Of a stretch of 64,000 nucleotides of DNA, positions 33,729 to 51,950 are shown piece after piece (positions within the stretch are counted from its first letter, which is position 1; each line of letters begins with the position of its first letter). The translations under genes were made by a program, and so were the position numbers. The stretch lies in sequence record MW598459; one strand, written 5' to 3'. Below the pieces are notes generated by a model that was not told the origin of the DNA, made no database searches, and saw nothing but the letters and a program-made list of their open reading frames with translations. Origin of the DNA: Escherichia phage vB_EcoM_RZ.

Positions 33729-33962
33729 TTATTCCAGAATAGTTTTGATAGTGGTTGCATTACGCTCTTTTAGAGCTCTTAATAGGCTATGGCAATTATC
33801 AAGAATAGGCACCGTTTTATATTTCATTTCGGGGCGAACCCACTCGGATTTATAGTACGATTTCCAACGAGAGAAAAAGTATTTTTTATATTCTACTGAA
33901 TAGGCTACCAGGTTTTCACCTTTTGAGTTCAGACCTGAAAACTTAACTAGACGAAATTTCAT
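33729..33962 (-). CDS. Hypothetical protein (77 aa), 31.2 position
   Basis: ORF immediately downstream of cd with overlapping stop/start. Confidence 0.5.
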   Translation of the reverse strand: MKFRLVKFSGLNSKGENLVAYSVEYKKYFFSRWKSYYKSEWVRPEMKYKTVPILDNCHSLLRALKERNATTIKTILE

Positions 33963-34543
33963 TATTCACCACAAAATTCGTTAATGTTTTCCCAGTTCAA
34001 TTTGTCTAGACTACGCTTAGGCACATTGAACACCTCAATTCCCGCGTTCTTCAGGATATCATCCCAACCAGGAATATTCTTATCATACGTTTCACAGTAA
34101 ACCAATTTCTTGATTCCTGATTGAGAAATTGCCTTTGCACAATCAGGACAAGGAGAAAGCGTCACATACATAGTAGCGCCTTCAATTGACGAACCCATTC
34201 TGGCTGCGAACAGAATCGCATTAAGCTCAGCATGAATTTCGTTGTTCTTTGACCATGCAGAATGTTCTTCGCGATGAGCTTTCGCCAATACAAAACGGTC
34301 AACCTGACTGAATCTCACGCATTCTGGCTTATGACCAGGGATGAGAACAGGTTTAGGTTTATTCAGTAACCAACCTTGCTCTTCCGCATGCTCGCAACAG
34401 TTAACCCCACCTGCAGGGGAACCATTATACCCTGTAGAAATAATGCGGCCATTCTTTTCAATAACAGCTCCCACTTTCCAGGAGCAACATTTGGATTCTT
34501 GAGATACAAGGTATGCGATTTGCAGAACAGTAGTTGGTTTCAT
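33962..34543 (-). CDS. cd: dCMP deaminase
   Basis: 193 aa, same length as T4 Cd; zinc-binding deaminase motifs HAE (CEHAEEQ) and PCxxC (SPCPDCAK). Confidence 0.92.
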   Translation of the reverse strand: MKPTTVLQIAYLVSQESKCCSWKVGAVIEKNGRIISTGYNGSPAGGVNCCEHAEEQGWLLNKPKPVLIPGHKPECVRFSQVDRFVLAKAHREEHSAWSKNNEIHAELNAILFAARMGSSIEGATMYVTLSPCPDCAKAISQSGIKKLVYCETYDKNIPGWDDILKNAGIEVFNVPKRSLDKLNWENINEFCGE

Positions 34544-34879: not shown

Positions 34880-35121
34880 TGAATATACACTCGCTGCGCT
34901 TCAACCAGACCGTCAGAACCCAATTTCAGTTGGGTCAACTGGTCACCACCTTTTAGAGTAATTTTCGGATTAATGACAATCATAAAACTGCGTGCAGATT
35001 CCTGAATAACTTGCAAAGTCGCAGCAGGGAATCGCTGTGATACGCGGTTAATCATCTCTTGAGCAAATGCCTTCACTTTTTCGTGGAACTCTTCAACAGT
35101 AATTGGGGTTTCGCTAAGCAT
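34876..35121 (-). CDS. Hypothetical protein (81 aa)
   Basis: ORF in the cd-pseT interval with ATGA overlap. Confidence 0.5.
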   Translation of the reverse strand: MLSETPITVEEFHEKVKAFAQEMINRVSQRFPAATLQVIQESARSFMIVINPKITLKGGDQLTQLKLGSDGLVEAQRVYIQ

Positions 35122-35663
35122 CAGATTGTCTCCTGTTTTACTTGTTTAACGATAGAAGCTTTTGTGATATCACCTTTGATAATATAACAATCTTCTGCAG
35201 TACCGCGGTTTAACAGGCGCTCTGCTTCGTCTTCCGCATATTCTTTTGACACATGACGAGAGTTAATCTCAATCTTGCCATTTTTAACCACAAGCAATTT
35301 CCAAACTGATGCAAGTTTTACTGGCACAGGTTCAACTTCTGGCTTAACACCAACTTCTGCCTGGATGAAATAATCAAATTCATCAGACAATGGACCAGCA
35401 GAAACAAACATTGCCCCATGATGCCTGTTCTGTGTGCCAGATATTTTTGGCAAATCCACAAAATCATTTTCATCAATCAAACGAATCTCACAAACTTTTT
35501 TACCGCCGCTGATGTCATCGGATAAAATCTTAACTTCAAACGGAGTCATACCGATGTATCCAGCAATTTGGTAATTGGCTGCCCAGCCTCCGGCAATAAA
35601 CTGTTTTTTGGCATTTTCAGATACAAATTTGTAAAACTTACCTTCTTCAAAGAAATCGCTCAT
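35121..35663 (-). CDS. Hypothetical protein (180 aa), member of a three-gene paralogue family
   Basis: N-terminus EGKFYKFVSENAKKQFIAGGW resembles the genes at 49160-49528 and 49878-50240; GAGGA ribosome-binding site. Confidence 0.55.
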   Translation of the reverse strand: MSDFFEEGKFYKFVSENAKKQFIAGGWAANYQIAGYIGMTPFEVKILSDDISGGKKVCEIRLIDENDFVDLPKISGTQNRHHGAMFVSAGPLSDEFDYFIQAEVGVKPEVEPVPVKLASVWKLLVVKNGKIEINSRHVSKEYAEDEAERLLNRGTAEDCYIIKGDITKASIVKQVKQETI

Positions 35664-46620: not shown

Positions 46621-48395
<1,775 letters not shown>

Positions 48396-48897: not shown

Positions 48898-48903
48898 TAC
48901 TTT

Positions 48904-49170
48904 TTAAATTTTATCAAGCCATTTTCCAAGTTTAGTCATTTCCTTGGTGGCCTTTTCCATACTTCTGAACTTAATTAATAAAGGATGAACATCCATACCC
49001 ATCACCAGATTGGTTGCAAGACTGTGCTCACCAACAAGCCATAATGAGTATGTTTGAACATCCAGACCATAATTTCTGTCTTTATGAACTCGTACACCCA
49101 TTACTTCAAACTGTTCGCTTGCTTTTTCTACTGCATCCAGGAAATCATCTTTAGTCATGTTAGACCCCAA
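48904..49170 (-). CDS. Hypothetical protein (88 aa)
   Basis: ORF in the frd-32 interval. Confidence 0.5.
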   Translation of the reverse strand: MGSNMTKDDFLDAVEKASEQFEVMGVRVHKDRNYGLDVQTYSLWLVGEHSLATNLVMGMDVHPLLIKFRSMEKATKEMTKLGKWLDKI

Positions 49171-49528
49171 AAGTTGCTTTAATCAGTGCAATGACTTCTG
49201 CTGCATTTTTGTGATTGACTTGCACATGAATGGTTTGGGTATCAACATCAGGAGCATCACCATCAACTTCCAGGAAGTGACGGAATTCCCATTCACCAAG
49301 TTCAAAGTACTCATCAGAATCACCCATACTATTCAGGATGGTGCCATCTTTCATTTCAACTTTTTCAACAAAATAATCGCCATCAATAAAGCACATGTCC
49401 AGGACTTTGAAGGAACTACCATGTTGTTCCATCAACTTAATCATACGCGAATTGTCATCAGGACTACCAGCGATGAATTGTTTTTTGGCAGCAGGGTCTA
49501 ATACGTAAAATTTACCAGTTTCCATCAT
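49160..49528 (-). CDS. Hypothetical protein (122 aa), paralogue family member
   Basis: Shares GKFY...KKQFIAG and D(S/D)(D/E)YFEL(G/S)E(W/E)EF blocks with the genes at 49878-50240 and 35121-35663. Confidence 0.55.
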   Translation of the reverse strand: MMETGKFYVLDPAAKKQFIAGSPDDNSRMIKLMEQHGSSFKVLDMCFIDGDYFVEKVEMKDGTILNSMGDSDEYFELGEWEFRHFLEVDGDAPDVDTQTIHVQVNHKNAAEVIALIKATFGV

Positions 49529-49587
49529 TTTAATTTCCTCATATTCAATTGAGGGAACATATTATCATGTTCCAGTTGGTTTGTATA

Positions 49588-49815
49588 CTAAGCTTGAATC
49601 AAGCCCATATAAAATTCAGCATCTTCCGGGTGCATCCCTTCGCAATATTCATTTTGCATAAAGCGGGTAAGGTCTTTGAGAGGACCTTGAACTTCAATTT
49701 GAATACTAAAGAATTGGGTATCTTTAATGTAAGTCATACACAAAGAAGGATACCGATTACGAATAACTTCGTAAGTGTATTCAAAATCAACGATATCAAT
49801 ATTAACCTTGGCCAT
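49588..49815 (-). CDS. Hypothetical protein (75 aa)
   Basis: ORF preceded by a GAGGAAAATAAA-ATG leader. Confidence 0.5.
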
Positions 49816-49877
49816 TTTATTTTCCTCATGTAGTTGATGGGTCTATAATAACATAATCATAGACCCGTTGTAAACTG

Positions 49878-50240
49878 CTATTTGAAAGCTTTTTGTAGAA
49901 GTTCAATGATTTGGTCGACGTTATTAGCATCTACAACACAATTAATAGAAACCGCCCCCGAAGGTGTTTTTGTATAATTGGAGTATTCACGGAAGCAATA
50001 AAACTCTTCTTCGCTAAGTTCAAAATAATCATCACCCATGCCATCATCATTATAGATTGCACCATTAGCACAAATGATTTCGGTTACATAATCATAGCCG
50101 TCTGCACTTGATATTGATTTAACTTCAAACCAACCGCCATTTTCTTGGATGATGTCGACCATACTAGCATTCGATGAACTAATATCAATGAAAGATTTAA
50201 TACGATGTGGATTGAACTCATATTTTTTGCCGATTTCCAT
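49878..50240 (-). CDS. Hypothetical protein (120 aa), paralogue family member
   Basis: Paralogue of the gene at 49160-49528 (GKKYEFNP...; DDGMGDDYFELSEEEF). Confidence 0.55.
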   Translation of the reverse strand: MEIGKKYEFNPHRIKSFIDISSSNASMVDIIQENGGWFEVKSISSADGYDYVTEIICANGAIYNDDGMGDDYFELSEEEFYCFREYSNYTKTPSGAVSINCVVDANNVDQIIELLQKAFK

Positions 50241-50278
50241 TTTTATTTCCTCAGTTGTTATCAGTAGTTGATGGAATC

Positions 50279-50308
50279 ATTATGCCTTAGCTCAAAGGAC
50301 TTGTACAC
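50279..50308 (-). promoter_or_regulatory. Early-type promoter (GTGTACA, 17 nt spacer, CATAAT)
   Basis: Minus strand reads GTGTACAagtcctttgagctaaggCATAAT, followed by the CCATCAACTACTGATAACAACTGAGGA leader. Confidence 0.5.
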
Positions 50309-50320
50309 TACTTTTTGAAA

Positions 50321-50347
50321 ATAAAAAGGGGACCCGAAGGTCCCCTT
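50321..50347 (-). terminator. Intrinsic terminator (GGGGACC-CGAA-GGTCCCC plus T-run) after gene 32
   Basis: 7 bp GC stem with tetraloop followed on the minus strand by TTTTTATTTTC; the gene 32 stop is at 50351. Confidence 0.75.
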
Positions 50348-50350
50348 ATA

Positions 50351-51262
50351 TTAAAGGCCAGCCAGCAGGTCATCAAGACCATCATCGGAAGGCTCTGGAG
50401 TGCTTGGGGCAGTCGCAGTGCGTTCAGACTTAGCAGGTTTGCTGGAAGTGAAGTCTTCCATATCTTTATCGAAATCGTCCAGGTCAGCACCCAGTTTATC
50501 GGCTTGTGCAGCAGCTTTAGAAGCAGCGCCACCGAGAGCAGCTGTGCCCATTACTTTAGAGAATTTCTTCTGATTCTCTTCAAGAGATTTAAATACCAGC
50601 AATTCATTCAGGTCAGACATGTCGTCCCAAAGTTTTTTCTGGAATGCTTCATCATTGATACCGGCGATTTCAGACTGGTTCATGAATTTGGAATCATCGT
50701 AGTTTTTATAACCGGAAACCAGTTTAGATTTCAGTACGAAGTTTGCACCATCAAACGGACAAGTTACATCAACAGCTTCTTCGCCCATGTCAACATCAAC
50801 TTCAACCATCTGGTTGATTTTGTCCATGATTTTCTTACCAAAGCGATATTTGAATACTTGGCCTTCGTTAGACGGAACAGCAGGGTCTTTAATGACCAGG
50901 ATGTTAGCCCAGTAAGAAGTATTACGCTTCAGTTTACGATATTCAGATTCGTTTGTATTGTACAGGTCATTCTTATTCATGTACGCACACACAGGGCAGT
51001 TTTCATAATCGCCGTGAGTAGAAGTACAGTTTTCAATATACCATTGACCAGCATTTTTAAAGCCGTGGTTAACGAGCTTGATGAATGGAGATGGATTTTC
51101 TTCATTCTTAGAAGGCAGGAAACGAATAACCGCAGAGCCGACGCCATCAGTATCTTTCAGTTTCCATTCTTTTTTATCGTCAGAAGAGAAACCAGCGCCA
51201 CCTTTCAGAGCGTTAAGGGAAGCAGCCAGGTCAGCAGGGTTTTTACGTTTAAACATAGACAT
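50351..51262 (-). CDS. 32: Single-stranded DNA-binding protein gp32
   Basis: 303 aa (T4 gp32 is 301 aa); strong match (VIRFLPSKN...HGFK..G.WYIE.C.STHGDY..PV.C.Y..KNDLYNT...[34 protein letters not shown]); acidic C-terminus. Confidence 0.95.
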
Positions 51263-51311: not shown

Positions 51312-51950
51312 TTAATTATACTTCAAAGTGATTGAAGCGATAAACTTTTGAAATTCAGAATCAAGATGGGGATTCCATCCTAATTTGAATTTATTTATAA
51401 TGGAAATACCGGTCGTGTGTGTACACGGTAAACCAGTTTCTCTTGCCATAATAACTGGACCAAGTCTGGAAGTTCTATGCGGTCCTATATACCAGTCATA
51501 ATATATTCCAGCATTTAACCAAACTAAATGAGCACCTTTAGCTATTGTATTAGGATGTTCCCAAGGCAATAAACCTTTAAGGTGAGAATTTAATTTCATA
51601 TTTATTTTATGTGATTCTGATTTTGGTTTACCTTTTAATGAAGACTTAAAGGTTCCACGAGCACTCGCCTTATTGAAAAACAATGGCGATTTAACCACAT
51701 TATAGTGTTGATGGTAAAACTCTTCTTCTGACAACACATCGTCACACACATGCAGAATTTTAACGGTTGGTTTTTCAGACAATGCCTCAATAAAACGAGA
51801 TTGTTTGCATGAAGACCAGTATTCTTTATTATGTGAATCAATTATAACACCATTTTCAAAAGCACAATTATGCTTTGACCCAATGTAAAAATAAGGAGGC
51901 GTTTTATTTTTCAGACGAGTTTCAAATGTAAACCAATATACAACATTCAA
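51312..51950 (-). CDS. GIY-YIG homing endonuclease-like protein (Seg-like), TTG start
   Basis: 212 aa; N-terminal VVYWFTFETRLKNKTPPYFYIGSKHN resembles a GIY-(10-11 aa)-YIG motif; no in-frame ATG upstream of the motif, so a TTG start overlapping the gp59 stop (TTGA) is required; T4 has segG at this position. Confidence 0.6.
   Translation of the reverse strand: MNVVYWFTFETRLKNKTPPYFYIGSKHNCAFENGVIIDSHNKEYWSSCKQSRFIEALSEKPTVKILHVCDDVLSEEEFYHQHYNVVKSPLFFNKASARGTFKSSLKGKPKSESHKINMKLNSHLKGLLPWEHPNTIAKGAHLVWLNAGIYYDWYIGPHRTSRLGPVIMARETGLPCTHTTGISIINKFKLGWNPHLDSEFQKFIASITLKYN

Follow-up and report, generated by a model that had tools for sequence, protein, structure and literature searches.

Genes A and B of Escherichia phage vB_EcoM_RZ as diverged frd.2 copies, and gene C as a probable distant relative, in the GoF/MotB.1/Frd.2 family

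Three small genes, here called A, B, and C, were analyzed in a 64,000-nucleotide stretch of DNA (the window) from Escherichia phage vB_EcoM_RZ (record MW598459), where a first-pass annotation had described them as a three-member paralogue family of early genes. We conclude with considerable confidence that A and B are diverged copies of frd.2 and that C is a lineage-restricted distant relative, all of them members of the GoF/MotB.1/Frd.2 family, with a mechanism in RNA metabolism as the inferred part of this reading. The window is from a T4-like phage of the Tevenvirinae, and the closest DNA relatives of positions 48900-50350 are Escherichia phages TH41, UPEC01, and VR20 and Shigella phage SP18 (Gaprivervirus), at 92-97% identity. 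The three open reading frames (ORFs) and the sequence motifs quoted for them were confirmed, all on the minus strand:

49160..49528, minus strand: gene A, frd.2b-type second Frd.2 paralogue, 122 amino acids (aa)
49878..50240, minus strand: gene B, frd.2a-type, assigned as the T4 Frd.2 orthologue, 120 aa
35121..35663, minus strand: gene C, remote member, 180 aa

The A protein carries 'ETGKFYVLDPAAKKQFIAG' and 'DSDEYFELGEWEF', the B protein 'EIGKKYEFNPHRIKSFIDI' and 'GDDYFELSEEEF', and the C protein 'EEGKFYKFVSENAKKQFIAG'.

Both A and B matched Pfam PF03197, "Bacteriophage FRD2 protein" (A, E 7e-33, 113.7 bits; B, E 8.8e-36, 123 bits; gathering cut-off 29), and both belong to phrog_622 (A, E 9e-34). 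As phrog_622 holds both T4 GoF and T4 Frd.2 (supplement of PMC11879866), A and B fall by N-terminal homology into the GoF/MotB.1/Frd.2 family. The B protein is 78.7% identical to T4 Frd.2 (tblastn; phmmer E 1.4e-63), has the same size, and lies in the same 32-to-frd neighbourhood, while A is a full-length paralogue of Frd.2 proteins with 31-36% identity. In SP18 the pair is already annotated as frd.2a/frd.2b, A being the counterpart of frd.2b. Judged by sequence, B is the T4 Frd.2 orthologue and A a second, diverged copy. Frd.2-like sequences were found in 886 phage records, at two places in 80-81 of them, and the A type (at least 60% identity) in 65; among close phages, the Frd.2 alleles fall into identity classes of 79%, 50%, and 35%. 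The notion of a separate three-member family was thus superseded: A and B are ordinary Frd.2 copies covered by Pfam FRD2 and the SP18 annotation, and all three proteins belong to a family that is already known. The discovery value is accordingly small, since the two neighbouring genes are annotated Frd.2 copies in a superfamily published in 2025.

Full-length alignment of A with B gave 32% identity over 121 residues (BLASTP E 3e-16), with a Smith-Waterman z of 21.6 and a score matched by 0 of 5000 shuffles. The pairwise alignment of A with C was limited to the first 28 residues (50% identity, BLASTP E 3e-4; z = 5.9, again 0/5000 shuffles), and this similarity appears marginal; when all 664 window ORFs with a length of 40 aa or more were compared, the best non-family match of A was C and that of C was A, with E about 0.02. 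B and C showed no significant pairwise similarity (BLASTP E 1.6; z = -0.3).

Profile-profile comparison connected the two families over a longer region. The C family (22 sequences) was aligned by hhalign with the Frd.2 family (18 sequences) over 81 columns (87%, E 3.9e-6), and when four distant C relatives were added, the alignment covered 97 columns (94.1%, E 1.3e-7), pairing residues 5-125 of C with 2-104 of A. Together with the A-B BLASTP value, this upholds the earlier view of a diverged paralogue family, and since the link of C is firm at the profile level, the shared-block observation is confirmed. The distant relatives (P0082-P0085, members of phrog_5804) each matched phrog_622 over the whole N-terminal domain, with E values of 7.6e-7, 1.3e-7, 1.1e-6, and 1.1e-4. 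Because the profile alignment spans the entire N-terminal domain, the homology is wider than the block noticed at first. That C is unrelated to A and B, its N-terminal block being a product of chance or convergence and the window holding only two family members, would accord with the nonsignificant B-C comparison, with the confinement of the A-C pairwise alignment to 28 residues, and with the lack of a Pfam FRD2 match for C, but in the face of the 97-column alignment at E 1.3e-7, the independent matches of the four distant relatives to phrog_622 (1e-4 to 1e-7), reciprocal Foldseek matches, and an identical order of secondary-structure elements, this is highly improbable and largely refuted already.

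The C and Frd.2 families have in common an E-F-x-(Y/H/C)-F-x-E motif that precedes the last strand of the barrel, and Y8, F18, N26, E81, and F85 (A numbering) are invariant in a 12-sequence alignment. The strongest A-C similarity is the helix block 'AKKQFIAG', which is the same in the A and C proteins. Five of its eight codons differ between A and C at synonymous positions, pointing to selection rather than recent gene conversion, and the latter was rejected as the source of the identical block.

No fourth member turned up in the window when the 664 ORFs were searched by phmmer and hmmsearch, for which six seeds and two profiles of the N-terminal domain were used, although these profiles do not detect members of the MotB.1 type. 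Likewise, when the 299 window ORFs with a length of 60 aa or more were compared with three profiles by hhalign, only A, B, and C were recovered, the next being a 63-aa plus-strand ORF at 18% probability. A relationship of C to Frd.3 was also considered: T4 Frd.3 (locus L003, 3079-3303) showed local similarity to residues 95-144 of C (window 35232-35381; BLASTP E 5e-5, shuffle z 6.5). The Frd.3 protein of the window gave no alignment to C, and C has no Pfam FRD3 match; the similarity was taken as probably due to chance.

Unlike T4 Frd.2, C lies outside Pfam FRD2, having no Pfam match at E values up to 1, and it belongs to phrog_5804 (E 7e-70). On sequence grounds, it is best described as a superfamily relative and not as an FRD2 member. 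The N terminus of C matched phrog_2980 'goF' at 1.6e-8 and phrog_622 at 8e-4, and T4 GoF aligned with the profile of the C N-terminal domain at 95.5% (hhalign, E 1.6e-8), a profile-level homology that places C in the GoF/MotB.1/Frd.2 family. C is also the best match of T4 GoF in the window, and its N-terminal domain is closer to GoF than to Frd.2. The first ~45 residues of C align residue for residue with those of T4 GoF (FFEEGKFYKF...IGMTPFEV against KFEVNKWYQF...LGMEPFKI), although the C-terminal domain of C is larger and the long acidic linker of GoF is missing from C. T4 GoF is also known as comC-alpha, 'mRNA metabolism modulator'. C is not a goF orthologue, because in phage VR7, of the same genus, a separate goF and motB.1 occupy the T4 positions, outside the region that matches this window. 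It follows that the lineage holds at least five paralogues, namely goF, motB.1, frd.2a, frd.2b, and C, and redundancy among them may explain the lack of a single-knockout phenotype in T4.

C was found in 82 records of the phage collection, all of which bear names of the Gaprivervirus or Dhakavirus (JS98-like) group, and is absent from T4. An exhaustive search with the C-family profile of 1.84 billion representatives returned 10 clusters at E <= 1e-3, all of them phage-like, with no bacterial reach and no functional clue. What may be new is the joining of phrog_5804 to the GoF/Frd.2/MotB.1 superfamily. Its modest worth is in annotation, as this so far unannotated family of 180-aa proteins, which has no Pfam entry, can now be labeled as GoF-like small-barrel proteins. 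The most distant C-family member, P0082, is encoded on a metagenomic T4-like contig (L004, 4001-4525), flanked by 30.8-like and 30.7-like genes in the vicinity of DNA ligase; since this is a different variable region, the C family moves between hyperplastic regions. In VR7, MotB.1 (L006, 4216-4971) is 251 aa long, versus 119 aa in T4, and the C-family profile aligns weakly to its residues 115-157; the VR7 protein may contain two tandem barrels.

The fold of the family can be assigned from models as a small SH3/LSm-like barrel. In the AlphaFold2 model of A (mean predicted local distance difference test score [pLDDT], 87.7), strands are predicted at residues 7-10, 39-48, 51-59, 64-66, and 85-88, and the model of C shows the same order of elements with the fourth strand unassigned. 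The order common to both models is strand 1, two helices, a long beta-hairpin, a short helix, and the last strand (beta-alpha-alpha-beta-beta-...-alpha-beta). A is predicted to consist of an N-terminal small beta-barrel (~1-90), a short linker, and a C-terminal strand plus helix, and C of a GoF-like N-terminal barrel (~1-105) followed by a C-terminal beta-beta-alpha-beta domain (~118-165). According to these models, the family architecture begins with a small beta-barrel of ~90-105 residues, into which two helices are inserted behind strand 1; a linker of acidic or variable character then leads to a strand-helix module that is enlarged in C. The models thereby reproduce the plan of GoF/MotB.1/Frd.2 proteins, that is, a bent antiparallel barrel of ~80-105 residues, a linker, and a separate C-terminal domain.

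Foldseek searches of viral models with A returned VR7 GoF (2.3e-6), T4 MotB.1 (4.4e-4), and the C orthologue of phage VR26 (1.1e-3), and those with C returned VR7 GoF (3.4e-3) and ~20 uncharacterized proteins of T4-like phages that were also matched by the A model; several of the matches come from one genome, e.g., that of Pectobacterium phage PM2. GoF and Frd.2, which share a PHROG, can be aligned over their whole length, the C-terminal strand-helix included, at a low hhalign probability but in a visually consistent manner and with a Foldseek value of 2.3e-6. Profile searches of solved-structure sequences gave chance-level matches only for both families, and an NCBIfam search gave nothing meaningful. 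The models also predict a fold-level similarity to FeoA and SH3-like small barrels. There is no sequence relationship to FeoA or to the C-terminal SH3-like domains of DtxR-IdeR, the only Pfam match being FRD2, and the biological setting is unrelated. GoF is without the metal-ligand histidine motif of related DNA-binding regulators (Kim et al. 2025, PMC12152347).

The published background on function comes chiefly from GoF. Kim et al. (2025, PMC12152347) described GoF/MotB.1/Frd.2 as a family of Tevenvirinae early proteins on the basis of three T4 genes, and named its fold 'LSm-like'. In their study, only the gain-of-function mutant GoF(D25Y) lengthened the half-life of gene 41 5'UR reporter mRNA, an effect exerted posttranscriptionally, while wild-type GoF and MotB.1 had no effect in this reporter assay; goF alleles rescue growth on rho mutants, and the family genes are dispensable on laboratory hosts (PMC12152347). 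We found that GoF D25 is aligned to the final residue of 'AKKQFIAG', the helix block common to A and C. This coincidence of the conserved helix block with the D25 site may be new: the block most conserved between the distant paralogues coincides with the only known site of a functional mutation in the family (GoF D25Y), which offers a concrete surface to mutate.

For the mechanism, we tentatively suggest, as a possibility of limited likelihood, that A, B, and C are early-expressed modules binding a protein of host or phage RNA metabolism. The proteins would be made in the first minutes of infection and would act stoichiometrically as small binding modules, whose binding face would be the barrel around helix alpha-1 and the following turn (the 'AKKQFIAG' block). 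Likely targets would be host or phage components of RNA metabolism (mRNA decay or Rho-dependent termination), and the paralogues would represent specificity variants of one binding scaffold. That the genes are early, as first proposed, agrees with a consensus scan and sequence reading, in which B, frd.3 (the gene between B and A), A, and C were each seen to have a promoter-like site of the T4 early type and a start region GAGGAAA-N-ATG, with GAGGAAA as the putative ribosome-binding site (RBS), and T4 frd.2 has been described as an early gene (PMC12152347). The net charge of the barrel is -11 to -12 in A and B (pI about 4.1-4.3) and -6 in C. Such a charge argues against direct RNA binding, a point that may also be new, and for the Frd.2-type barrel, it makes a protein a more likely partner of the wild type than RNA.

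Several points weigh against our reading of the three genes and its mechanism. Wild-type function has been demonstrated for no family member, in this analysis or in the literature. Although frd.2 was the only T4 "Fit" gene of unknown function in a screen by CRISPR interference through antisense RNA targeting (CRISPRi-ART; PMC11879866), the call is marginal (score 0.83, p 0.027, 4 guides), and nothing else points to an importance of frd.2. The promoter-like sites are consensus matches, no more numerous in the region than expected from shuffled sequence. The AlphaFold2 model of C is moderate, with a mean pLDDT of 75 (five models, 48 to 75), and B is linked to C only transitively, via A and the family profiles. 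The first-pass statement that the sequence reveals no function is outdated in part, in that fold and family can be assigned and GoF genetics point to mRNA stability.

A doubtful alternative, though one that deserves weighing, is that the proteins are counter-defence or host-takeover decoys, as the first pass had suggested: acidic barrels that serve as ligand mimics or as blockers of a host defence or nucleic-acid-binding protein unrelated to mRNA stability, the paralogue expansion reflecting an arms race. Lineage-specific expansion (A type in 65 records, two Frd.2 places in 80-81, C in 82), deep allelic divergence of Frd.2 among close phages (79%, 50%, and 35%), strong acidity, early promoter-like sites, the dispensability of the genes on laboratory hosts (PMC12152347), and their location in shuffled cassettes all fit such a role. 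However, a literature search on frd.2, goF, and motB.1 found no tie to any defence or counter-defence role, and rapid divergence is usual for most T4 nonessential early genes. PADLOC gave no matches; because its library holds defence systems and not counter-defence proteins, this null result is uninformative for counter-defence. A bolder, unlikely combination is that the GoF, Frd.2, and C barrels are diversifying acidic decoys or adaptors whose helix alpha-1 face (the 'AKKQFIAG' block, matching the GoF D25 site) engages either an RNA-targeting defence or a host factor of RNA decay or termination, with the lineage-specific extra copies frd.2b and C of Gaprivervirus and Dhakavirus as specificity variants in an arms race. 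If true, the barrels would form a so far unrecognized family for counter-defence or host takeover, and their interaction surface would be defined.

Two further alternatives concern the barrel itself. One, decidedly unlikely in our judgment, is a Tudor-like domain that docks on the beta subunit of RNA polymerase, as domains of CarD, Mfd, and UvrD/PcrA do, and modulates elongation or Rho-dependent termination, which was the original 'antitermination' idea for goF. The other is a genuine Hfq/LSm-type RNA chaperone, in which the barrel forms an oligomeric ring and binds RNA directly. The likeness lies in the small, strongly bent five-stranded barrel and in the RNA-related phenotype of one mutant family member, as the GoF(D25Y) phenotype concerns RNA stability; moreover, Kim et al. 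(PMC12152347) list Hfq among the structural neighbours and call the fold 'LSm-like'. The canonical Sm/LSm/Hfq features, an N-terminal alpha-helix before five strands together with Sm1/Sm2 motifs or a Pfam LSM/Hfq match, were not found, however: in the models, no N-terminal helix precedes strand 1 and the helices are inserted after it, there is no LSM or Hfq Pfam match, and net charges of -11 to -12 (Frd.2 barrels) and -6 (C barrel) argue against basic faces. Homo-oligomers were not predicted with confidence by AlphaFold3, and in the RNA assay neither wild-type GoF nor wild-type MotB.1 showed activity (PMC12152347). An Hfq-type chaperone is thus very unlikely.

The surroundings of the genes bear on how diverged Frd.2 copies and C are arranged and expressed. 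A and B are located between gene 32 (50351-51262) and frd (47477-48058), and C is located upstream of cd (33962-34543, dCMP deaminase), all on the minus strand. The further features of these regions are as follows:

50326..50347, minus strand: strong intrinsic terminator immediately past the end of gene 32; stem of 9 bp rich in G+C, with a TTCG loop and a T run
50279..50307, minus strand: promoter-like site upstream of B, just past the gene 32 terminator; TGTACA, 17-nucleotide (nt) spacer, CATAAT; consensus match only
49839..49874, minus strand: early-type promoter with embedded hairpin, like early promoter-stem-loop (PeSL) elements, upstream of frd.3; TTTACA, 18-nt spacer, TATTAT
49588..49815, minus strand: frd.3 homologue between B and A; Pfam PF05798 Phage_FRD3, E 5e-37; outside the Frd.2 family
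49554..49573, minus strand: hairpin upstream of A; GGAACAT-GATAAT-ATGTTCC, with a -10-like hexamer in the loop
35693..35720, minus strand: early-type promoter upstream of C; G-TTTACT, 16-nt spacer, TATAAT; 10/12 matches

From its sequence, the gene 32 terminator is expected to insulate B from gene 32 transcription. PeSL has been described as TTTACW N17 TAYWAT plus a stem-loop (PMC4122927), and PeSL cassettes are reported to mediate modular shuffling in T4-type phages (PMC2839356, PMC4122927). Such cassettes are resembled by the hairpin-bearing promoter-like regions upstream of frd.3, A, and C. The hairpin in the frd.3 promoter consists of GGGTCTAT, a 12-nt loop, and ATAGACCC, and the spacer of the C promoter holds the palindrome CACCATGGATGGTG; the hairpin upstream of A is a possible PeSL-type cassette border.

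The gene order in the window is 32, B, frd.3, A, versus 32, frd.3, frd.2 in T4, so that two copies stand on either side of frd.3 in the former while the single copy of the latter is downstream of it. The T4 place of frd.2, downstream of frd.3, is held in the window by the divergent copy A, and the T4-type orthologue B lies between gene 32 and frd.3. In SP18, frd.3 is absent between frd.2a and frd.2b, and the promoter that stands before frd.3 in the window directly drives frd.2b. Compared with SP18 (locus L001, 3127-3191), the window has 287 bp extra within 49526-49829 on the minus strand, which hold frd.3 and A's own upstream region. This indel ends exactly in a repeated RBS/start segment, ATGAGGAAA(A/T)TAAAATG, at 49829-49813 and 49542-49526. 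End points in this repeat fit recombination between regulatory cassettes for the gain, loss, and reordering of these genes, and the 287-bp difference would be a cassette gained or lost in this way.

C is the first gene of a tight run formed by C, an 81-aa ORF, a 111-aa ORF, and cd. The stop codon of C overlaps the ATG of the 81-aa ORF (35119-35123, minus strand), which in turn overlaps the 111-aa ORF, and the latter abuts cd. Similarly, a single base separates the TAA stop of A from the ATG of the next ORF (49158 to 48904, phrog_4423; junction at 49156-49162, minus strand). Both arrangements, A with the next ORF and C with the 81-aa and 111-aa ORFs and cd, look like translationally coupled runs. 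The TTG start listed at 49170 for the phrog_4423 ORF is probably wrong. A 212-aa ORF (51312-51950, minus strand) adjoins gene 32, at the position annotated in SP18 and T4 as the SegG homing endonuclease.

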